A program made the position numbers and the translations under genes. Positions 1,180 to 30,124 of a stretch of 38,274 nt of DNA are shown here, one piece after another. The DNA comes from an uncultured Candidatus Saccharibacteria bacterium (GTDB lineage: Bacteria > Patescibacteriota > WWE3 > UBA101185 > UBA10185). How positions within the stretch are numbered: the first letter of the stretch is position 1; every line of letters starts with the position of its first letter. The stretch covers positions 1 through 38,274 of the forward strand of contig CAZHSR010000003.1 in assembly GCA_964535155.1 (NCBI GenBank). Reading direction: 5' to 3'. The notes beneath the pieces were generated by a model. That model was given only the letters and a program-made list of their open reading frames with translations, had not been told where the DNA came from and did no database searches.

Positions 1180-2703
1180 TTACTTTTGCAAATCATCCTG
1201 AGAAGGAATTTTATAAATACAAATTGGGTCACCTCTTCTTAGAAAATTGGAAATAATAAAATCTGGGGTATTTTGAATTTTTACTTTGTCACAAAAGGAA
1301 AATAGGACAAAGGGGTACTCAAACTTGCTTGTTTTTTCTGGAAGCTTTTTTGCTAAAGGAGGCAAGGTCAAGTCAAGGTCAGAACCGTCATAATAAATTT
1401 TGTAAGTTTTTTGCTCAAGAATTGAGAGATTATCCTGATACCATTGCAAAGCCAATATCCTGGTATCCGTTCTTGCAAAAGCAATAGAATTTTTGAGGGA
1501 CATTCCAAGGGGAACAATAAAAATTAAGGTTAAAACAAATAGGTAAGCTTTTTTGGAAAGGCTTTTGGTAATTTCTGCTGCCACCCATCCGATGGAAAGA
1601 GCAATTAAAGGGTATGCCATCATATAATAATGGCTGCGGTTTTTAGAAAATCCTGAAACATAAAAAAGAAAAGCTAGAGCTGGTGGATAAAGGAGGGTTA
1701 AGGCTTGTATTTGAAAAATGGATATTTTTTTGGAAAGGATTTTGTGGATAAATAAGACCAGTCCGAAAACAAATAGGATTACAAAAACAAAACTCCAATC
1801 CGAAGGGAATTTGTCCAAAAAAGCAGAGAAAAATTGAGAAACTTGACTGGAAAAGGATCTACTACCAACATTTGTAAACTGCCAATAGGCGCCTTTGGGA
1901 CCATCGGTGCGACTAAAGGTTTTGTAGTCTAACAGGGCAAAGGGTGTGCCCAAAAGGAAACCTATTAGGGCAAAAATGGCGCTTGTGATAGGTTTGTAGC
2001 TATTTTTAATAATTTGTGGAAATGGGGGGTTTTTTCCAAGAAAGTAAACAAAAAATGCCACTGCAACTAAAAGGGCCGAAAGACCTCCATTATATTTTGT
2101 AGAAGCTGCCAAACCAACAAAAAATCCAGCTTTTATAAAGTTTTTTAAGGAAAAATCGGTTAAGATGCAGGCCGAAAAATATAAAACCCAGGCTACTAGA
2201 AAGGTCATTGGCGCATCTGTAAGGCTGTAGTGAGAATGATGCACACTAAAAGGGAGAAGTGTCATTGATAATGCACCTAATAGTGCAATGCGTTCATTAA
2301 AAAGTTTCTTACCTGCTAAATACACGGGCAAAGCAGTTAAAGCGCCAAGTGTGGCAGTAAAAATTCGAGTGATTAAATAAAAAACTAGGGTATCGTCCCA
2401 AATTATGGGGAAAATGGCGGAGGCAAAGGATTTTAAACTTATGATTTCTAAGCCCTCTCTAAAGGCTGCAAAGCTCATATATACAAAGTAGTTTAGATAA
2501 ATATATAAATGGGGCCAGTCAAAATGCTTTGGATTAGGGAAAAATCTAACACCTAAGGCGGATCTTACGATTGTAGGCTCATCTGGGTGGAAGATATAGG
2601 GAAATCCATGTGTGATACCAAAGAGGCGGAGAAAAAGGGCTAGAAAGATTATGCTAACTATTAACTTGTTCTGCTTAAGATAGCTAAAGGCGATTTTTAA
2701 CAT
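1180..2703 (-). CDS. GT-C fold membrane glycosyltransferase (ArnT/PMT-like family)
   Basis: 507 aa, polytopic with more than 10 hydrophobic segments. Acidic first-loop motif after TM1 (FHPDEPTIVRS), typical of GT-C enzymes. Lies in tandem with two paralogues; its stop is 5 nt from the next start. Confidence 0.7.
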   Translation of the reverse strand: MLKIAFSYLKQNKLIVSIIFLALFLRLFGITHGFPYIFHPDEPTIVRSALGVRFFPNPKHFDWPHLYIYLNYFVYMSFAAFREGLEIISLKSFASAIFPIIWDDTLVFYLITRIFTATLGALTALPVYLAGKKLFNERIALLGALSMTLLPFSVHHSHYSLTDAPMTFLVAWVLYFSACILTDFSLKNFIKAGFFVGLAASTKYNGGLSALLVAVAFFVYFLGKNPPFPQIIKNSYKPITSAIFALIGFLLGTPFALLDYKTFSRTDGPKGAYWQFTNVGSRSFSSQVSQFFSAFLDKFPSDWSFVFVILFVFGLVLFIHKILSKKISIFQIQALTLLYPPALAFLFYVSGFSKNRSHYYMMAYPLIALSIGWVAAEITKSLSKKAYLFVLTLIFIVPLGMSLKNSIAFARTDTRILALQWYQDNLSILEQKTYKIYYDGSDLDLTLPPLAKKLPEKTSKFEYPFVLFSFCDKVKIQNTPDFIISNFLRRGDPICIYKIPSQDDLQK

Positions 2704-4321
2704 ATACTCTCCAATAATTTAATCCGTTTATTTTCATTGTAAAATCGAGGTCAAACTGGTCATTGAGTTCATCAGGCACTTTTTCATTTGGACCTAATAC
2801 AACAATATCATAATTGGAAGGTCCAAATTCGCGGATGTCAAAAATGTGAGAGGATTTGTAGATTCTTGACATGGGCTTTGTGTCATAAAAGCCTAATTTG
2901 GGGGATTCTGTGGATTCCTCATAGGTTCCATATTTGGAAAGAATTTGGTTTTTTAGGTTGGGAATTCCTATACCGAAAGGCTTTTGAGCCACAATATAAT
3001 GGGCATTTTCTGGGGAGCCAACAAGGGGGGTAAAATATGTAAATTGATAAGGATGAAATGCAAAATTTAAAGATAATAGAGCCATAGTAGAGAGAATTAA
3101 AAAGGGTTTTTGGTATTTTTGAGGAATTGTTTTTTCATAACCAATGAAGCTAAAAAGACAAAGGAGGGGAAAAATGGGGATTAAGTAACGATCTATTTTT
3201 TTGGAAGATATTGTCATAGTTGCCATGTAACCTAAGTAGAAAATGGTAAGGATTATCCTTAAGGCCATGGGGTTTTTGCCTTTGATGGGGAGCAAAGAAT
3301 TAAATCTGCTAAGGATTATCCTTGGGAGATCTCGGCTTTTTTCAGCAGTTAGGGCAAAAACCCCCAAGTGCCTAAGGATAATCCTTGTAAAAAGTAGAAG
3401 CCCTATAAATAAAATCGGGGAAGTTTTTAGAAAAATTAAAACAGGATAAAAAGTTAAACCCGGATCAATGGTCTCTTGGCCAAAGTAAATTTGCTCATGC
3501 CCCTTGCGAATCCCAATTCTTTCAGCCTCAGTAAAAATTTTTGTTATTGTATCAATAGGAGCCACCCATGTTGCAGGAAAGAAAACAAAAACCGCCAGAA
3601 AAAACCCCATCAGGAAAAAGAAAATTTGGCGCAAAAGTTCCTTCGGTTGGTTAAAGTAACAAAAAACTAAAAAGGCCAATATAAAGGGCAAACCTCCAAT
3701 TGAGATACTTTTAGTCAAAAATGAAAATGCCAAGAAAACGCCAGAAGCAAAAACATACCACCTTGAAAATTTTTCATTAGGAAAAGCCGAAATATAAGCC
3801 AAAACCAGCGAAATCAGCAAAAAAAGGCTCAACAGAACATCCATGTGAAGCAAGCGAGAATTCCCAATAAAAAAAGGCTCCAAACTAAAAAACCCAACCA
3901 ACAAAACAGCCTTTTTTAAATCAAAGAGCTTCTTAAAGAGCCAAATCAAACCAAGAGAAAGCATCAACTGCGCAAAAACAACAGCATATTTTGCAACCGT
4001 ATGCATCAATATAAAATTTTCTTGATTATAAACCCGCAAAGAAGGCTCAATTTGTCGCACAATCTCTATAGCTACGCCCATGATCCACATTAAAGTCACT
4101 CCAGGATGATAATACTGATAAGTCCTTTCCCATTGATGAGCCTTTAAACCGTCAATAAACTGCTCCGATCTATAATGCCAATTTACTGCATCAGGATTTA
4201 TTGAATCTTGTCCTAAATAGGGAAGGCGCGTTAACAGAAAAAGTGCAACAAAAAGTGCAACCAAAAACCAAGAAGAGTTTATTAAACGATTAAAAAGACT
4301 AGTCGCTTTTTCCAAGAGCAT
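2684..4321 (-). CDS. GT-C fold membrane glycosyltransferase (ArnT/PMT-like family) carrying palindrome cluster A in frame
   Basis: The track ORF is 2684-4381. I prefer the ATG at 4321 (MLLEKATSLFN...), just before TM1. Paralogue motifs are shared with the 1-1175 gene. The segment RIILRHLGVFALTAEKSRDLPRIILSRFNSLLPIKGKNPMALRIIL is encoded by repeat cluster A. Confidence 0.7.
   Translation of the reverse strand: MLLEKATSLFNRLINSSWFLVALFVALFLLTRLPYLGQDSINPDAVNWHYRSEQFIDGLKAHQWERTYQYYHPGVTLMWIMGVAIEIVRQIEPSLRVYNQENFILMHTVAKYAVVFAQLMLSLGLIWLFKKLFDLKKAVLLVGFFSLEPFFIGNSRLLHMDVLLSLFLLISLVLAYISAFPNEKFSRWYVFASGVFLAFSFLTKSISIGGLPFILAFLVFCYFNQPKELLRQIFFFLMGFFLAVFVFFPATWVAPIDTITKIFTEAERIGIRKGHEQIYFGQETIDPGLTFYPVLIFLKTSPILFIGLLLFTRIILRHLGVFALTAEKSRDLPRIILSRFNSLLPIKGKNPMALRIILTIFYLGYMATMTISSKKIDRYLIPIFPLLCLFSFIGYEKTIPQKYQKPFLILSTMALLSLNFAFHPYQFTYFTPLVGSPENAHYIVAQKPFGIGIPNLKNQILSKYGTYEESTESPKLGFYDTKPMSRIYKSSHIFDIREFGPSNYDIVVLGPNEKVPDELNDQFDLDFTMKINGLNYWRVYVKNRL
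3248..3386. repeat. Palindrome cluster A: 3 perfect copies of AAGGATWATCCTT with a 63-bp period, inside a CDS
   Basis: Copies at 3248-3260, 3311-3323 and 3374-3386, separated by two 50-nt spacers. Spacer ends next to the outer copies are inverted repeats of each other (3261-3281 aaggccatggggtttttgcct versus 3351-3373 agggcaaaaacccccaagtgcct). Confidence 0.9.
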
Positions 4322-5300: not shown

Positions 5301-6072
5301 TAGTAATAAAGTATCTGTTGTACTCGTCCCCTTTTGTGTTAGTGGTGTAGGATTTTAGGATTTCTAGGTGGGCGTCTTGGCAAAGCTTTGTGGCTTCTTC
5401 GGTGGAGATGTAGTGACAATAGCGAATTGCTTCGACGCCTTTTGACCAGGTTAGTAAGTAATCGTGTTCTTCTAATTCTTTTAATTCGGAAAGGTTGATA
5501 TTTTGGCTTTCCCAAGGAGCAACATTTTTGGGAAAATTTGGGGCTTTTACAAATTCCCATGTGGAGAAGACTATTTTTCCTTGAGGGGCTAACAAGGCTT
5601 TAAGGATTTTTAACAGTTCTAATCTCTTTTCATACGAAGGGATGTGATGCAGGACTCCAAAAAGGGCTATAAGGTTAAATTTTTCCTTTGTGAAAGGTTC
5701 TTGCTCGAAGGGGTTTTTTGGATCTGAGCTTAAAATATCAATGGATTTGAAATCGGAATTGGGAAGGTTTTTTTGAGCTTTTTGGAGTAGAAAATCATCA
5801 AAGTCTATGCCAAAGTAATTGGCTTGATTAAAATTAGGAATTTTTTCCTTTAAGAAGAGCCCAAATCTTCCGTTTCCGCAGCCGACATCTAAAACTTTGG
5901 GGGTTTCTTTTAGAGCCTCGTTTGAGATTCCCTCTGAAGCTGTGTCTAGAAAAGGCAAGACGCCGTTCCACCCTTCCCAATAGTATTCTCTAGTGGAATC
6001 AAAGTGAGGTGCAACTCTGGAATAAAATTCTTTATTTATATCGTTAAGGGATTTAATAAGACTTGCATTCAT
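5293..6072 (-). CDS. Class I SAM-dependent methyltransferase, Trm9-like (candidate tRNA mcm5U34 methyltransferase)
   Basis: SAM motif I VLDVGCGNGRFG. N-terminal FYSRVAPHFDSTREYYW matches the Trm9 signature (yeast Trm9 VYNEIAPHFSQTRYKPW, recalled from memory). Also FGVLHHIPSYEKRLELL and the C-terminal IRYCHY (Trm9 YRYYHLY). Divergent from elp3. Confidence 0.7.
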   Translation of the reverse strand: MNASLIKSLNDINKEFYSRVAPHFDSTREYYWEGWNGVLPFLDTASEGISNEALKETPKVLDVGCGNGRFGLFLKEKIPNFNQANYFGIDFDDFLLQKAQKNLPNSDFKSIDILSSDPKNPFEQEPFTKEKFNLIALFGVLHHIPSYEKRLELLKILKALLAPQGKIVFSTWEFVKAPNFPKNVAPWESQNINLSELKELEEHDYLLTWSKGVEAIRYCHYISTEEATKLCQDAHLEILKSYTTNTKGDEYNRYFITSV

Positions 6073-6096: not shown

Positions 6097-6239
6097 AAGG
6101 ATAATCCTTGGAGAAATCTGGAGTTCAGCTTGTCATTAAAACTAAAACGCATAGTTGCCCAAAGGATTATCCTTAACGAAACTCAAGGTTTATCCTGTAA
6201 ATAAAGCTCAAAGTCCCATTTTGTTAAAGGATTATCCTT
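6097..6239. repeat. Palindrome cluster B: 3 perfect copies with a 65-bp period in the Trm9-like/elp3 divergent intergenic region
   Basis: Copies at 6097-6109, 6162-6174 and 6227-6239, with 52-nt spacers. A degenerate copy aaggtttatcctg lies at 6185-6197. Confidence 0.9.
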
Positions 6240-13258: not shown

Positions 13259-14436
13259 TGTTTTAATACCTCTGCAAAAACTTTTTCATACTGATCTAAC
13301 ATTTTATCAAGTGTAAGGTTATTATAAGCAAATTTTCTGCTGTTTTCAGAAAAGGTTTTTCTCTTTGTGGGGCTATTAATTAGGTCTAACAATTTCTCCT
13401 TAAACTGGGCATACTCCCCCGAAGGGATTAGAAATCCAGTTTCTTCGGTTTTAACAGCATCTGAGACTCCGCCCACGCCAAAGGCAACAACTGGGAAACC
13501 TAAAAACAAGGCTTCTGCTAAAACCATTGGGAAACCTTCATATCGTCTTGTAGGAAAGGCAAATATTGCATCTTTTTGCTGATTTAGAAATTCTAAAAGT
13601 TCTAAATAAGGCTTTTTTCCATGCAAGATAAAATTGTCTTTTTGGGACTTCTCAACCAATGCTTTTAGTTCTTCTAAATAGTCTCCACCTCCAATAATGT
13701 CAAACTTGATTTCCGCAAATTCTGGTTCTTGTGAAAGCTTAAAAAGTGTATCTAGACCTTTGGATTTTGTTATTTGCCCTACATAAAGGATTTTTGGCGA
13801 ATCTGTGGGCGCATTTGATATGTTTGTAAATAAAGCAGGGTCAACTCCATTATTTACCACAGCAACTTTATCCTTTGAAACAAAGGTTTCATTTAATAGA
13901 GCCTCCTTTACTGCCGAAGAAACGGCAATAATCTTATTGGAACCATGAATAAATTGTCTTTGCCTTCCAAAAAATACTCTTAAAACAAAAATCGAGTCCT
14001 TTAATAGCCTAAAATAAGCCTTAAATCCCTTTGCTGTTTGAAAATTCGTTTGAAATTCGCCAATAATGGTCCCATGTGAAATTGAAACAATAGGAACATT
14101 GAATTCTTGGCGTTTTTGAATAATTCCCAGTCCTGCGGAGCTTTGACTTATAACTAAATCAAAGGGCTTTTCTTTATGATGTTTTGCAGAAACTCCTCTA
14201 GAAACATTAAGCCAATTATTTTTTCCAAAATGCGTTAGTTTGTAGACACAGGGAAGAAAGTGATATTTGACACTATTTTCATACTTTGTTTCAAACTTTA
14301 ATTCTTTTTGGGGCGCAAAAACCGAAATATCATGGCCTCTTCGGACTAAGCCCTCACATAAAGTCTTATTTTGAGTCTCTAAGCCACCATATCCCGTGTG
14401 AAATGTTGTGGATTTAATAAAAACTGCTATCCGCAT
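13255..14436 (-). CDS. GT4 family glycosyltransferase
   Basis: 393 aa. YGGLETQ N-terminal motif and EGFPMVLAEALFLGFPVVAF block. Confidence 0.8.
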   Translation of the reverse strand: MRIAVFIKSTTFHTGYGGLETQNKTLCEGLVRRGHDISVFAPQKELKFETKYENSVKYHFLPCVYKLTHFGKNNWLNVSRGVSAKHHKEKPFDLVISQSSAGLGIIQKRQEFNVPIVSISHGTIIGEFQTNFQTAKGFKAYFRLLKDSIFVLRVFFGRQRQFIHGSNKIIAVSSAVKEALLNETFVSKDKVAVVNNGVDPALFTNISNAPTDSPKILYVGQITKSKGLDTLFKLSQEPEFAEIKFDIIGGGDYLEELKALVEKSQKDNFILHGKKPYLELLEFLNQQKDAIFAFPTRRYEGFPMVLAEALFLGFPVVAFGVGGVSDAVKTEETGFLIPSGEYAQFKEKLLDLINSPTKRKTFSENSRKFAYNNLTLDKMLDQYEKVFAEVLKQ

Positions 14437-14440
14437 GGAT

Positions 14441-15706
14441 TCATTGTATCAAAAGCTGTTCTAATTCTTTTATGTTCTTGTCTATGTCAAACATTGCCAA
14501 AGCTTTTTGTCGCAAAATTTCACAAGGATAATCCTTGGCCGTTTTGGCACTTTGCTCTGTTGCCACAGGCAAATCCCCCATTTTTATGAAGGATAATCCT
14601 TGAAGGATTGCATCAGCCAATGCCTTTGGATCCCTTTGTGGCACTATCCAACCAGTTTTTTCGTCAACTAATTCAAGGATACTCCCTGCATCTGTTGCAA
14701 CTATTGGCTTTGCCAACATTGCTGCTTCTATTATAAAAGTGGGGATACCATCGGCGTCACCAGAATCTAGGTTTATATTTGACTGCACAACCAAATCACA
14801 GGCCTTTAAATAAGAGACAACTTCATTAAAAGGCACCCCTTCGCCTCCGCCATGTATAAAAACATTATCTTGTAGCCCTAAAGAGGCTATCTGTTGAGTA
14901 AGCTCTTGATACAAAGGACCTGGCCCTGCAATATGCAGTTCAAAATCCAAACCGTTATCCTTTAAAATTTTTGCCGCCTCAATCAAATACTTTTGCCCCT
15001 TCTTTTCTACCAAGCGAGCGCCACCATTAAACAAAAAAGGTCTTGTTCCCCTTTTCGCAGGAGGGACAGAATCAAAGGACGCCACAGAATCTATTCCATG
15101 GTATTGCAATAAAACATTTTCAGGAGCTTCAACACCAGAACGCCTAATGCAATCTTCATAAGCAAAGCGATTACAAATGGAAATGAATTTTGCGGTTGCT
15201 ACTTTGGAAGCAAAAAATTCACCTTCTACCATTACATCCTTTGCATGTGCCGAAATACTATATGGAATTTCCAGCAACTTTGACCCTATCATTGCCATTG
15301 TAGAAGGCCACGACATGAAATTTGCATGAATATGATCAGGAGAAAGTTGTTTAAATAAGTAAGCATATCCAACCGATTTGGCAAAAATAACCAATTTTTT
15401 GGCTAAAGTTTCTTCCTTTGTGGAAAGTAAAAATCTAAAAGTTTTCCCTAAAACCGAAGGTTTCCTGCTCAAAAAATAAATCCAAGCTCTAATTGCCGTT
15501 ACAAAATCCAATCTCTGATAAACAACATGAGTTGCAACATTATCAAATAATCTTCCACTAGCCTTTTCCAAAGAGAAAACAGTTATTTCTAAATTTCCTA
15601 AATCTACGAGCTTAGAAATTTCCCTCTGAATAAAAGTTTCAGTTAAACGCGGAAACTCAGGAACAAAAATAAGAATTTTCTTTTTTTTGTCCTGATTTTT
15701 CTGCAT
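14441..15706 (-). CDS. GT4 family glycosyltransferase carrying palindrome cluster C in frame near its C-terminus
   Basis: 421 aa. DGIPTFIIEAAMLAKPIVATD block. The C-terminal segment QGLSFIKMGDLPVATEQSAKTAKDYPC is encoded by the repeat cluster. Confidence 0.8.
   Translation of the reverse strand: MQKNQDKKKKILIFVPEFPRLTETFIQREISKLVDLGNLEITVFSLEKASGRLFDNVATHVVYQRLDFVTAIRAWIYFLSRKPSVLGKTFRFLLSTKEETLAKKLVIFAKSVGYAYLFKQLSPDHIHANFMSWPSTMAMIGSKLLEIPYSISAHAKDVMVEGEFFASKVATAKFISICNRFAYEDCIRRSGVEAPENVLLQYHGIDSVASFDSVPPAKRGTRPFLFNGGARLVEKKGQKYLIEAAKILKDNGLDFELHIAGPGPLYQELTQQIASLGLQDNVFIHGGGEGVPFNEVVSYLKACDLVVQSNINLDSGDADGIPTFIIEAAMLAKPIVATDAGSILELVDEKTGWIVPQRDPKALADAILQGLSFIKMGDLPVATEQSAKTAKDYPCEILRQKALAMFDIDKNIKELEQLLIQ
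14443..14451 (-). promoter_or_regulatory. Extended -10 (TGaTACAAT) placed for a leaderless start of the GT4 gene at 14436
   Basis: The minus strand reads TGATACAAT-gaatcc-ATG. It overlaps the 3' end of the upstream GT4 gene. Confidence 0.4.
14524..14601. repeat. Palindrome cluster C: 2 perfect copies 65 bp apart, inside a CDS
   Basis: AAGGATAATCCTT at 14524-14536 and 14589-14601, with a 52-nt spacer. Total length 78 bp = 26 codons. Confidence 0.9.
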
Positions 15707-26645: not shown

Positions 26646-27806
26646 ATGAGTTTAACTACAACTGCCAAAAACACCAAACTTGCCTTTTGGCTCTCAATAA
26701 TTTTTATAATCGTCTTTCTTTTGGGGAGGTACATTTTTATACCAACCTTGAAAACCGCCTATAATAGGGCTTTTCCTCCAAAAAATCCTCCAAATCCAGT
26801 ATATGGACTTTTAGATCCAATTGAATTTGAGCCGCAAAGAATCCTTAATACAACGCCTCCAAAATATACTTTATTTACAAAAGATGGAAGATTACCTGCA
26901 GATTTACCTAATAGAGCCACAGTTTATACATATGCACAACCTGCTTTTTCATATGAGGCTGGAAAAAGAGCTTCTGCTGATGCTAGTAAATTAGGGTTTT
27001 CAGATGCTACACTTTCCACAAGTTTAAAAGGCAACGAATATAGATGGGTTGACCCTGCAACAGGAGCAAGCCTTTTTGTTGACATAACAACTTCCGAATT
27101 GGAAATGAAAATTCCTGCATATTCTTTATTTGGAGCATTTAAACCAGGTTCTATAAACAGGGTAACTGGTCCCTCCACAGCTAAATCTATTTTGCAAAAT
27201 ATTGGCAGATTTTGGGATCCTTTATACACAAGCGGAACTCAAACTACAGAAATGGGAATTGTTAGAAATAATGGAATTGTTTACACAGCATTTCAAGGGG
27301 AAGCAGAAGTAGCAAGAGTTGACTTTTTTAGATCTGTTAATAATGTCCCACTTGTTGGCCCTGTTTATAAAGAGGGTTTAATTAGAATGGTGGTTGCAAT
27401 ACCAGAAAAGGACCAGGTTATAAGGAGGAGCCCTTATATTTATTACAATGTGAGGGAAATTGTGCAAAATTCTCAAGCTACTTATCCATTACTTCCTATT
27501 GCAACAGCTTGGGAAGAAGTTGCCAAAGGCGAGGGCGTAATTTCTTTTGTAAGACCAGGCACTCAAAGCGTTTTTGATGAATATAAGCCAATTAGAGTTA
27601 GTGAGGTTTTAATAACTGATATATTTTTGGCCTATTATGATGACACTAGAGAACAACCTTATTTACAACCTATTTATGTTTTTGAAGGAAGCTATACTGG
27701 ACCCGATAATTCTAAGGGGGGAATAGCTATTTATTATCCTGCAGTTTCTGGAGAATGGGTGAAGAAGGAAGAGGTTGAGACTGAGGCGATTGTGCCGGGA
27801 CAATAA
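26646..27806 (+). CDS. Hypothetical N-terminally anchored extracytoplasmic protein
   Basis: 386 aa with a single N-terminal TM (LAFWLSIIFIIVFLL). I recognise no family. Confidence 0.5.
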   Translation: MSLTTTAKNTKLAFWLSIIFIIVFLLGRYIFIPTLKTAYNRAFPPKNPPNPVYGLLDPIEFEPQRILNTTPPKYTLFTKDGRLPADLPNRATVYTYAQPAFSYEAGKRASADASKLGFSDATLSTSLKGNEYRWVDPATGASLFVDITTSELEMKIPAYSLFGAFKPGSINRVTGPSTAKSILQNIGRFWDPLYTSGTQTTEMGIVRNNGIVYTAFQGEAEVARVDFFRSVNNVPLVGPVYKEGLIRMVVAIPEKDQVIRRSPYIYYNVREIVQNSQATYPLLPIATAWEEVAKGEGVISFVRPGTQSVFDEYKPIRVSEVLITDIFLAYYDDTREQPYLQPIYVFEGSYTGPDNSKGGIAIYYPAVSGEWVKKEEVETEAIVPGQ

Positions 27807-27847: not shown

Positions 27848-28831
27848 CTAGTACCAAACGAAATTATTCTCCAACCAGTTAAGAATTGCCTTTGTTTCGG
27901 GGAATCTAGCCTCACTTCCCATTAGAATTATTAACAAATCCTTGTCTTCATCTGCATATTCATAAATTAAAACTTCCCTTGCCTGACTTGTTGTACCAGT
28001 TTTAATTCCTACGGATCCTGAAATTTGGGTTAAAAGCTGATTTGTTGAGTAAATTGTTCTTGGGATATTACCTGTTTCTAGGTTATAAAAAGGCTTGGCA
28101 TAAATTTCTTTAATTAAGGCATTTGCCTTTGCTCTTTGTGCCAAAATGTAAAGATCCTTTGCTGTAGACTTATGAGAATAATCAAAGCTGTCAAAGCCAA
28201 CGGGATTGGTAAAAATTGTATTTACCATGCCAAATTGAAGGGCTTTTTGGTTCATCAGTTGAACAAAAGTCTCTTCGGTTGTGGCGGTGTTAGCTAAAAT
28301 ACATGCAGCATCATTTGAAGAGGAAATCAGGGTCGCATGCAGAAGGTCTTTTACTGAAATTTCTTCGGCGAGGGTCAGGTCCAGGCGATTTCCTTCTACA
28401 TTTAGACACTTTTCTGGCGTATTAGATATGGGCAAGATTTCATCTAGGGAGTAAAGATCTAAACTCACTAATGCTGTCATAAGCTTTGTTGTTGAAGCTG
28501 GTGCCAAAATTGTGTCGGGATTCTTTTGATAAAGGATTCTTGTTGTGTTTAGATCTGCAACCAAAACCGATTTTGCTGATAAAGTAGGGAATTTTGCTTT
28601 TGTGGCGTTTGTGTTGGCGGCTCCTACTGCATGGGGGATTTTTGTCATACTTCCCAGAGTCACGGGATATAGTGTGAGGGATAATCCCTCAACCGAAAAG
28701 AGCTTCTCCCTATTGAGAAGGGTAAAAACCACAATTGCCACAAGGATTATCCTTCGCTCAATCCACACCAAGACTTTCAGTAAGGCATTAAGTGAAATTT
28801 CGTTAAGGATTATCCCTCGGACTATAGGCAT
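27848..28831 (-). CDS. D-alanyl-D-alanine carboxypeptidase (peptidase S11 / PBP5-like); the N-terminal ~55 aa are encoded by palindrome cluster D
   Basis: SxxK (ASTTKLMT), SxN (SSSNDAA) and KTG (IKTGTT) motifs. The ATG at 28831 is 3 nt after the aspS stop. The only hydrophobic anchor (RRIILVAIVVFTLL) lies within the repeat cluster. An alternative start at M62 (28648) would leave no export signal. Confidence 0.75.
   Translation of the reverse strand: MPIVRGIILNEISLNALLKVLVWIERRIILVAIVVFTLLNREKLFSVEGLSLTLYPVTLGSMTKIPHAVGAANTNATKAKFPTLSAKSVLVADLNTTRILYQKNPDTILAPASTTKLMTALVSLDLYSLDEILPISNTPEKCLNVEGNRLDLTLAEEISVKDLLHATLISSSNDAACILANTATTEETFVQLMNQKALQFGMVNTIFTNPVGFDSFDYSHKSTAKDLYILAQRAKANALIKEIYAKPFYNLETGNIPRTIYSTNQLLTQISGSVGIKTGTTSQAREVLIYEYADEDKDLLIILMGSEARFPETKAILNWLENNFVWY
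28677..28817. repeat. Palindrome cluster D: 3 copies (one perfect, two C/G variants) with periods of 65 and 63 bp
   Basis: AGGGATAATCCCT at 28677-28689, AAGGATTATCCTT at 28742-28754 and AAGGATTATCCCT at 28805-28817. The spacer module 28719-28741 agggtaaaaaccacaattgccac resembles 3351-3373 in cluster A. Confidence 0.85.
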
Positions 28832-28834
28832 TAA

Positions 28835-30124
28835 TTATGGCTTTAATCTTTTTACATCCCTTGGCAAATAGGTTGCTTCCTTTATTGTAGGCAAATCCAA
28901 GATTTTCATGACAATTCTACCTGGGCCAATTCCTGCCCCTCCATGAGGCGGACAGCCATATTTAAAGAACTCCAAATAGTCATGAATTGACTCCAAGGAT
29001 AACCCTTTGCCTTCTGCCTGAGCTTTTAACACATCCAACCGATGCTCCCTTTGCGCTCCAGTTGTAATTTCCACACCTTTATAAAGCAAATCAAAGCTCT
29101 TGGTAATTTCCGGCCTATCTTCATATCGCATATGATAAAAAGGTCGCGCGTCTTTATACCAATTTGTGACAAAGACAAAGTCATGCCCAGTTTCCTCTTT
29201 TATAATCTCGCAAATTCTTCGCTCCTCTTCCGGGCTTATGTCATGCTCTTTTTCGCTAGGCACTCCAGCTTGAGCCAGCTTTTCCTTTATTTCCACCATC
29301 TCCAACCGAGGGAATGGGCGCCCAGGCACTTCCAGATGGGGCAAAACAGTGGATTTGAGCTGTTCAAATCCAGATACAATGGCAGATTCCAAAACATCCA
29401 TAACTTCTTCGGGTCCATTTATGTAAGAAATCTCAAAGTCCCATCCAGTAAATTCGGTTAAATGCCTAGTTGTAAACGAAGGTTCTGCACGAAATACAGG
29501 TCCCGTCATAAAGACCTTTTCCAACCCAGAAGCCATAGCCATTTGCTTGTAAAACTGAGGAGATTGTGCCAAATAGGCCTTTGTCTCAAAATAACCGACC
29601 TCAAAAACATCAGCGCCAGACTCACTTGGGGCACTCATAAACGAAGGAGTATACAGCTGAACAAAATCGTTTTCCAAAAAGTATTTGCGGAAACCCTCTT
29701 CCAATTGAGTCCAAACCTTAAAAATTTGCTGCTTTTCCGGTCGACGCAAATCCAGCCAACGAAAATCCAATCGCTTTGAAACATCAACTTCCCCCCCACT
29801 TTTCTCAAAAACCACAGGAATTGCAAGTTCTGGAGCTGCTAAAGATAAAATTTCCATATCAGATACGGCAATTTCTACGCCATTAGGAGCTTGAGCTTCT
29901 TCTTTTACCAAGCCTTCCAGGGAGATAACCGATTCCAAAGTTAAATCTGCAATTTTTGGAAATGCCAAAGAGTCCGCACGAATTACAGCTTGAATTGTGC
30001 CTGTAATATCGCGAAGGTTTAAAAATTTAATCTTTCCTTGATCGCGAATACTTTCCACAAAACCAGATACTTGAGCAGTTTTGCCAATTTGAGATTTAAT
30101 TTGGCTTATTTTTGTTCTTTCCAT
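28835..30124 (-). CDS. aspS: Aspartate--tRNA ligase, archaeal/type-2 form (possibly non-discriminating)
   Basis: 429 aa. N-terminal OB anticodon-binding domain, class II motif 2 GPVFRAEPS, motif 3 GGAGIGPGR, and a C-terminal PRDVKRLKP as in archaeal-type AspRS. Confidence 0.85.
   Translation of the reverse strand: MERTKISQIKSQIGKTAQVSGFVESIRDQGKIKFLNLRDITGTIQAVIRADSLAFPKIADLTLESVISLEGLVKEEAQAPNGVEIAVSDMEILSLAAPELAIPVVFEKSGGEVDVSKRLDFRWLDLRRPEKQQIFKVWTQLEEGFRKYFLENDFVQLYTPSFMSAPSESGADVFEVGYFETKAYLAQSPQFYKQMAMASGLEKVFMTGPVFRAEPSFTTRHLTEFTGWDFEISYINGPEEVMDVLESAIVSGFEQLKSTVLPHLEVPGRPFPRLEMVEIKEKLAQAGVPSEKEHDISPEEERRICEIIKEETGHDFVFVTNWYKDARPFYHMRYEDRPEITKSFDLLYKGVEITTGAQREHRLDVLKAQAEGKGLSLESIHDYLEFFKYGCPPHGGAGIGPGRIVMKILDLPTIKEATYLPRDVKRLKP

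Follow-up and report, generated by a model that had tools for sequence, protein, structure and literature searches.

The S11 DD-carboxypeptidase gene on contig CAZHSR010000003.1, from an uncultured WWE3 bacterium, carries three copies of a short palindrome (array D) in its first codons, immediately downstream of aspS. This arrangement raises the question of whether the N-terminal extension that contains the palindromes is translated and, if it is, whether a repeat element gave rise to the membrane anchor of the enzyme. The locus was analysed within the whole 38,274-nt stretch of DNA (hereafter the window; ~36% G+C, with cell-envelope and housekeeping genes) and compared with other sequences, which are designated by L numbers. 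The N-terminal extension is translated as far as sequence comparison can show, and the anchor appears from the same comparison to be older than the palindromes. The palindromes probably belong to a WWE3-wide repeat family that is similar to the repetitive extragenic palindromes (REPs) and is tied to a Y1/HUH (IS200-like) gene resembling those of the REP-associated tyrosine transposases (RAYTs), with array D lying over a translated anchor that already existed.

A previous sequence-only reading of the locus described three copies of AAGGAT(A/T)ATCCTT, 63 bp and 65 bp apart, across codons 5-52 of an open reading frame (ORF) that starts 3 nt past the aspS stop, and this description was confirmed (Table 1). 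It also held that the cluster is translated and not intergenic, and the orthologues agree. DNA was compared for seven orthologues, four of which were aligned at the codon level around M62 (28648), the alternative start. All seven orthologous genes start with ATG, 3-30 nt past the aspS stop. At the position of M62 the four aligned orthologues have ATA, ATA, CTT or CTA (I/L), and they have no internal start in common. The frame of the extension is open in seven lineages, and every indel is a multiple of three in length. Changes are most frequent at third codon positions (22 versus 17 and 11), which is a weak signal alone. The maximum Kyte-Doolittle value in a 15-residue window is 0.76 from M62 on and 2.05 in the extension, and the hydropathy scan found no hydrophobic segment downstream of M62, so that a protein begun at M62 would lack the anchor segment, as had been argued. 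The putative anchor segment in the extension, as read from hydropathy, consists of ERR and then IILVAIVVFTLL, and reaches 2.05 (15-residue window) and 2.15 (19-residue window). A terminator-like hairpin, CTTCTC-AATAGG-GAGAAG with a T-rich tail, is present at 28703-28720 on the - strand, in the D2-D3 spacer and inside the coding sequence. On visual comparison L001 does not retain it, which makes a chance origin probable.

The proposal that this anchor was built or exapted from the repeat element did not hold. Three orthologues are free of palindromes (L053, L054 and L055, with 61%, 51% and 50% identity), and L004 (60% identity) has a single 1-mismatch D2 remnant and no other palindrome. The N-terminal anchors of these four are colinear with that in the window and equal to it in length, and the residues of the spacers are still recognisably homologous. 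For example, spacer 1 reads NEISLNALLKVLVWIE in array D and RELVLDSLLDFLVFLE in a palindrome-free orthologue. The N-terminal layout shared in the alignment comprises an amphipathic helix, E-R/K-R, a hydrophobic stretch, LNR/F-VE and a linker. The F-VE(S) motif, which lies under D3 and past the transmembrane segment, is common to distant Patescibacteria orthologues. Because the palindrome-free orthologues and the distant F-VE(S) motif share the features of the anchor, we regard the anchor as ancestral, with the palindromes overlying it. The array shapes some of its residues (RGIIL, RRIIL and EGLSL), and the codons of D2 give the positive residues of the anchor and the first residues of the hydrophobic segment. 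By this comparison, however, the array did not create the anchor. The transmembrane start (RRIIL and VVF), which carries the extended module described below, may at most have been locally remodelled.

The DNA of the orthologues was also compared for the palindromes. In L001 (65% identity) they occupy the same codon positions, and there is a fourth copy. L002 (60% identity) also has them at the same codon positions, mostly as AAGGAC-W-GTCCTT, a change that is symmetric in both half-sites and turns RRIIL into RRTVL. Copy D2 is kept in L001 and becomes AAGGACAGTCCTT in L002. In D3 the central base is T on the coding strand, and a TAA stop in that frame is thereby avoided. A single mismatch separates the window's copy inside aspS from the palindrome, and the orthologous site is perfect (AAGGATTATCCTT) in L001 (1808) and L002 (1186), 177 nt before the peptidase start. 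Array C shows the same pattern. Its orthologues in L020 (2598/2663) and L049 (3781/3846), with 70-72% identity, keep both palindromes 65 bp apart, and the changes KDYP>KDCP and QGLSF>QGQSF in the GT1 orthologues arise through double substitutions that keep the dyad symmetry. The 17-codon spacer between these palindromes diverges almost completely, and the 65 bp spacing is unchanged. Orthologous intragenic copies persist at 60-70% protein identity.

Symmetric changes are also found within the window and across the family. The compensated or partial A-to-G changes reported for two copies of array D are present, as a symmetric A>G / T>C change in the copy at 28677, which remains a perfect palindrome, and as an A>G-type change on one side only in the copy at 28805. 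Over 127 arrayed sites, positions 6/8 are C/G in 61, T/A in 46 and hybrid in 17. The pair is complementary in 107 sites versus 63 expected under independence, an excess that partly reflects differences between genomes. Such symmetric variants recur across lineages, and the suggestion of selection for palindromy is supported in this respect. Positions 6 and 8 flank a single central base and cannot pair within one hairpin, so a hairpin inside the palindrome was rejected as the cause of this covariation. The symmetry suggests either that a dimer reads the sites or that they were copied from symmetric master sequences. By eye, the spacing list showed no consistent pattern of central-base complementarity between neighbouring copies.

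The family unit is a 13-bp perfect palindrome, AAGGAY-W-RTCCTT, in arrays of 2-4 copies spaced by 63-65 bp and sometimes by 84-87 bp. The window contains 14 matches at ≤2 mismatches, against 1.2 expected, a number reached in 0 of 100 shuffles, and 10 of its 23 perfect 6-1-6 palindromes belong to this single family. Both the shuffles and the sharply peaked spacings rule out a chance origin of the repeats. In the window the copies fall into four arrays (A, B, C and D), each with three. An extended module, consisting of the palindrome, ~10 nt and then GGGTTTTTGCC, is found at six flanks with offsets of 10-12, in arrays A and C, at D2 and in L002. This shared module accounts for the similarity between the D2 spacer and cluster A, which had been described as homology. 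It is a true but weak similarity, with uncorrected p values of 0.02 and 0.004 in global alignment. Beyond this weak module, only orthologous spacers were homologous between arrays.

A search for two palindromes 46-56 nt apart was performed in one genome per species from 185,579 species, and matched one genome only, the 864-kb WWE3 metagenome-assembled genome WJKK01. It has six dispersed arrays, five of which fill gaps between co-directional genes, and one lies in frame in RNase HII. A metagenome scan with the same gap tolerance (46-56), allowing both palindrome variants, retrieved 42 loci. Their spacings peak at 63 (12 cases) and 65 (23 cases), with a second class at 84-87. The 63/65 distribution is bimodal and 64 is almost absent. 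The spacers have a symmetric A/T-tract composition profile in common, but no common sequence. Among 49 arrays, 30 are located outside long ORFs or straddle them, 15 are ≤300 nt from an ORF end and 4 are internal. Arrays lie ≤200 nt from a gene boundary in 88% of cases versus 48% of random positions (p 2e-8). Of the six frames of the palindrome, a single one includes a stop (GGA-TAA, with central A), and the C/G variant has none. Arrays are tolerated in frame because the palindrome is nearly stop-free, and their in-frame readings (RIIL, GLSL or KDYP) fall in tolerant protein parts. The genes adjacent to arrays (rpiB, rsmD, gatB, rnhB, dacA and glycosyltransferases) are functionally unrelated and form no coherent regulon. 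A different repeat, AAGGACTGTCCTT, was seen in L036, four times at 31-nt spacing (3702-3807) and twice at 26 nt (14239-14277), unlike the 63-65-bp arrays.

The gene linked to these repeats was identified in L019, where it is bracketed by two arrays. The residues H106-F107-H108, Y166 and N170-P171 are invariant in 20 family members, and the aligned tyrosine matches the YIYINP region of 4ER8, the structure of TnpA-REP, which is the sole PDB match of the L019 protein. NF047646, the NCBIfam family of REP-associated tyrosine transposases, is the only family match of all 20 members, with a best score of 49 bits. In L019, L021 and L033, palindromes lie ≤~60 nt from the RAYT-like gene on both sides. 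In a prediction test, homologue contigs were picked by protein sequence alone and their flanks were then inspected. Both L056 and L058, picked in this way, are flanked, L056 by the symmetric variant CAGGACWGTCCTG and L058 by AAGGATAATCCTT, the type seen in the window. The five WWE3-type contigs (L019, L021, L033, L056 and L058) have the gene flanked on both sides by lineage-specific palindrome variants, while the RAYT-like gene in L040 is not flanked by the repeat. Beyond WWE3, the RAYT-like gene of L060 (Berkelbacteria contig JANLHU010000067.1) is flanked by AAAGGCCWGGCCTTT at 3001-3015, 3729-3743 and 5848-5862. This repeat has the 6-1-6 form and the AAGG..CCTT outer arms seen in WWE3, and its downstream copy is a hairpin with 19-bp arms. 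The gene of L059, a distant homologue, is flanked by direct copies of its own 25-nt repeat, with GTAG on the opposite strand. The RAYT-like family has 3129 members at E <= 1e-5, with names that indicate several groups of the candidate phyla radiation.

L019 and L056 have the gene order rplJ-rplL-RAYT-like gene-glgA in common, which is consistent with vertical descent of the RAYT-like gene at one locus. An array also supplies the codons for the C-terminal tail of the protein in the closest subfamily. It reads KDYPYS and, 65 nt later, TR(I/T)(I/V)L, and a third copy at a further 65 nt overlaps or adjoins the stop codon. The K(D/E)YPYS coding motif is a possible origin of the repeat. The tail arrays are located at 6898-7040 in L019, 8255-8458 in L056 and 753-895 in L058, and the conserved K(D/E)YPYS is a palindrome copy. 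Approximately 4 kb from the RAYT-like gene, L056 also contains a reverse transcriptase gene (RVT_1) and then a bAvd gene (2016-3750), the pair typical of a diversity-generating retroelement, with palindromes at 3816 and 3898 just after.

Signs of copying were found in two proteins. Exactly at array A, the GT39 protein of the window is ~32 aa longer than its closest orthologue, P0242, and P0243 shares and extends this insert, which is repeat-like and reads RMIL and RILL. The RNase HII of L006 (WJKK01000001.1, gene 2545..3324) has ~41 extra residues between the GRGPLAGP and DSKKL blocks relative to E. coli RNase HII. These residues hold both palindromes (2684-2760) and read EGLSL and SRIIL. From the association between repeat and gene we infer a mechanism in which the RAYT-like protein would recognise the palindromes and spread or maintain them by cleaving and joining single-stranded DNA in the manner of REP/RAYT systems. 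Alternatively, it may bind the palindromes as a dimer. The copies would be kept intact by RAYT-like maintenance or by some host function.

A REP-like family tied to the RAYT-like gene is, in our judgement, the probable explanation, but several observations weigh against it. The peptidase and GT1 arrays lie in native colinear codons without a change of length, for which simple transposition of a fixed-length element does not account. Covariation beside a single central base suits a dimer on double-stranded DNA better than a single-strand hairpin, and the unit is a 13-bp perfect palindrome whose own hairpin is trivial. Neighbouring copies fold through palindrome-to-palindrome pairing (Z-scores -0.3 to -5.1), which is automatic for a self-complementary unit. 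The folding showed no paired stem in the spacer interior, and a long REPIN-type hairpin appears unlikely, as only end-to-end palindrome pairing was seen. The WWE3 flank profiles contain no guide tag (GTAG/CGTC), with ≤0.5 bit/position, and the bimodal 63/65 spacing with 64 avoided does not fit. The RAYT-like proteins score below the NCBIfam equivalog cut-off (49 versus 80 bits), and a PDB profile search did not separate TnpA-REP (E 0.0029) from the IS200-type ISDra2 TnpA (E 0.005). No homologue of the RAYT-like gene was found in the 38-kb window.

Part of this evidence would suit a role in protein binding. It is possible, though we hold the idea only tentatively, that the arrays are phase-locked protein-binding platforms for a domesticated RAYT-like protein or another dimer, kept by selection at gene boundaries, and that they overwrite coding sequence, with the DNA signal taking precedence over amino-acid identity. 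Such overwriting, a detail for which we would claim no greater confidence, would take place where a compact genome leaves no intergenic space and would produce the changes Y>C, L>Q and II>TV. Another proposal, which we consider rather unlikely, is that the palindromes are phased operator arrays that originate locally through point mutation and not through transposition, are bound on one helix face by a homodimer, either a domesticated RAYT-like protein or an unrelated regulator, and at gene boundaries serve a regulatory or architectural purpose for which the host selects them. The spacings of 63-65 and 84-87 bp are near 6 and 8 helical turns, and the two classes are 21 bp apart, yet helical phasing does not predict the avoidance of 64. 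Operators would account for the peptidase and GT1 arrays that overlie native codons at constant length, for palindromes and spacing that are kept while spacers diverge quickly and amino acids change, for symmetric covariation that hairpin pairing cannot produce, and for the clustering at gene boundaries. The GT39 and rnhB insertion polymorphisms and the shared extended module point instead to copying, the adjacent genes have no common function, and the sole consistently linked gene belongs to a transposase family and is no known regulator. An array B palindrome directly abuts TATAAT, 9 nt before an ATG, but no sigma-70-like promoter above chance was found in arrays D or B.

The two remaining alternatives concern array D itself. 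A mobile palindromic element could have landed at the 5' end of the peptidase gene and been exapted as a signal-anchor, from which the anchors of the clade descend, with the palindromes decayed in some members. The extended module does lie at D2 and its flank with the offset seen in arrays A and C and in L002, the D2 remnant of L004 indicates that palindromes decay while the protein persists, and hydrophobic readings of the RIIL type are found again in GT39, the RAYT-like tail and rnhB. We nevertheless judge this history improbable, given the colinear, equal-length anchors of palindrome-free orthologues at 50-61% identity, the clear homology of spacer 1, the F-VE(S) motif under D3 in distant Patescibacteria, and the fact that N-terminal anchors are general in this peptidase family. 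It is very improbable that the cluster is intergenic, with M62 as the start, the array as a promoter or leader, and the long ORF as an artefact of a stop-free repeat. ORFs can cross arrays by accident where the palindrome has no stops, as in most frames, most arrays elsewhere are intergenic, and many N-terminal REPs perhaps lie outside the real coding region (PMC3733652). There is also a TATAT-like box after D3 and a GGGAAG ahead of M62. Against these stand the I/L codons at M62 and the lack of a shared internal start, the frame kept open in seven lineages with indels in multiples of three, the excess of third-position changes (weak alone), and the absence of an export or anchor signal by hydropathy from M62 on. 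A sigma-70 promoter or leader ahead of M62 was rejected, as no sigma-70-like site on the - strand within array D exceeded chance.

Table 1. Coordinates of the palindromes, arrays and associated genes.
Feature	Sequence	Position	Strand	Remarks
D1 palindrome, AGGGATAATCCTT	window	28817-28805	-	codons 5-9, read RGIIL; orthologous copy in L001 and L002
D2 palindrome, AAGGATAATCCTT	window	28754-28742	-	codons 26-30, read RRIIL
Hydrophobic anchor segment, RRIILVAIVVFTLLN	window	28712..28756	-	codons 26-40; module TGGTTTTTACC 11 nt after D2
D3 palindrome, AGGGATTATCCCT	window	28689-28677	-	codons 48-52, read EGLSL; kept in L001 and L002
aspS near-palindrome, AAGGATAACCCTT	window	28995..29007		inside aspS, read KGLSL; one mismatch
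Array A	window	3248/3311/3374 (3248-3386)		63/63 bp apart; inside GT39/PMT_2 gene, all read RIIL
Array B	window	6097/6162/6227 (6097-6239)		65/65 bp apart; fills divergent gap between methyltransferase gene and radical-SAM/GNAT gene
Array C	window	14524/14589/14675 (14524-14687)		two perfect copies 65 bp apart; third, 2-mismatch copy 86 bp on; last ~85 codons (3' end) of GT1 glycosyltransferase gene
S11 DD-carboxypeptidase gene	window	27848..28831	-	327 aa; Pfam Peptidase_S11 (PF00768), 151 bits
aspS	window	28835..30124	-	upstream gene; stop 3 nt ahead of peptidase start
GT39/PMT_2 gene	window	2684..4321/4381	-	array A copies 21 codons apart, between two transmembrane helices
386-aa ORF	window	26646-27806	+	between peptidase gene and gltX; no Pfam match
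RAYT-like gene	L019	6909..7607	-	232 aa; bracketed by two arrays; Pfam Y1_Tnp 35.4 bits (cut-off 23)

The peptidase is of the PBP5/6 type and has the SxxK, SxN and KTG motifs. Across 18 orthologues there is no variation at S113-T-T-K116, at S171, as read within SSSND, or at K277-T-G279. A total of 1254 homologues were retrieved, mostly from WWE3/Patescibacteria. The closest share 60-65% identity, are 314-319 aa long and align across 97-99% of the 327 residues. L002 and L055 have the same order aspS-dacA-hypothetical-gltX, which is found in part in L001, L003, L053 and L054. The hypothetical ORF at 26646-27806 has counterparts of similar size without domain hits, in the same place and orientation, in L002, L004, L054 and L055, and looks like a conserved gene of no assigned family. 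A search of the window for known RNA families (Rfam) found only tRNA-Phe. A CRISPR array or mini-array was rejected as an explanation of the repeats, as the repeat is only 13 nt long with 2-4 units and no cas domains were found among the window genes. The cumulative GC skew changes sign near 8 kb of the window, and partly tracks gene orientation.

Repeats of comparable form are known from other systems. KorB OB sites are 13-bp 6-1-6 palindromes, and sopC-type centromeres consist of regularly spaced repeats with a short inverted repeat. Both kinds of site are bound by dimeric proteins, sometimes inside genes. The likeness is one of form only, as the WWE3 arrays are chromosomal and dispersed, with no linked ParB/KorB-type gene and no sequence similarity. 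The WWE3 system is closer to the REP/BIME and RAYT systems (TnpA-REP, REPtrons, REPINs), in which a Y1/HUH gene is flanked on both sides by a scattered short palindrome (PMC3733652, PMC3116915). As in those systems, the repeat is lineage-specific and changes along with the gene, the gene lies at one syntenic locus, and the repeats are mostly between genes, often in regularly spaced clusters, with occasional in-frame intragenic copies. Intragenic REPs encoding 20-82 aa, many at ORF N-termini, and REP arrays beside exopolysaccharide gene clusters have already been described (PMC3733652). The WWE3 unit differs from REPs, which are 20-40-nt imperfect GC-rich hairpins, in being a 13-bp perfect 6-1-6 palindrome. 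The WWE3 lineages also lack the conserved GTAG/CGTC guide tetranucleotide, GTAG being present only in the distant L059 repeat. Their arrays have a phase-locked period of 63/65 bp and spacers of unrelated sequence, and copies inside genes are retained at orthologous positions even when protein identity falls to 60-70%. Their RAYT-like proteins score below the curated RAYT cut-off, and the host is a candidate phyla radiation bacterium. Our literature searches retrieved no description of a system of this kind from the candidate phyla radiation.

The GT39 and RNase HII cases also recall Rickettsia palindromic elements (RPEs) and intragenic REPs, which lie in frame in functional genes, where 20-80 residues are added or recoded, frequently at N-termini or in loops (PMC3733652). 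However, there is no sequence relationship to RPEs, which are single units of 100-150 bp, and the peptidase and GT1 palindromes overlie ancestral codons without insertion.

For this uncultivated lineage, in which automatic annotation could be called into question, the comparison settles, as far as sequence can show, the start and the probable membrane anchoring of a cell-wall enzyme. It also carries a warning for annotation: because ORFs can run through stop-free repeats in these genomes, each N-terminus needs orthologue support. If the palindromes are, as we think probable, a REP-like family tied to the RAYT-like gene, REP/RAYT-type systems extend to the candidate phyla radiation in an unusual form, with a minimal perfect palindrome and fixed spacing. 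The arrays provide a clean natural case of an intragenic DNA motif that is conserved more strictly than the protein it encodes, and allow the view of such repeats as selfish passengers to be tested against a role in serving the host. If the arrays were instead protein-binding platforms, they would represent a second, DNA-level code over genes in candidate phyla radiation bacteria.

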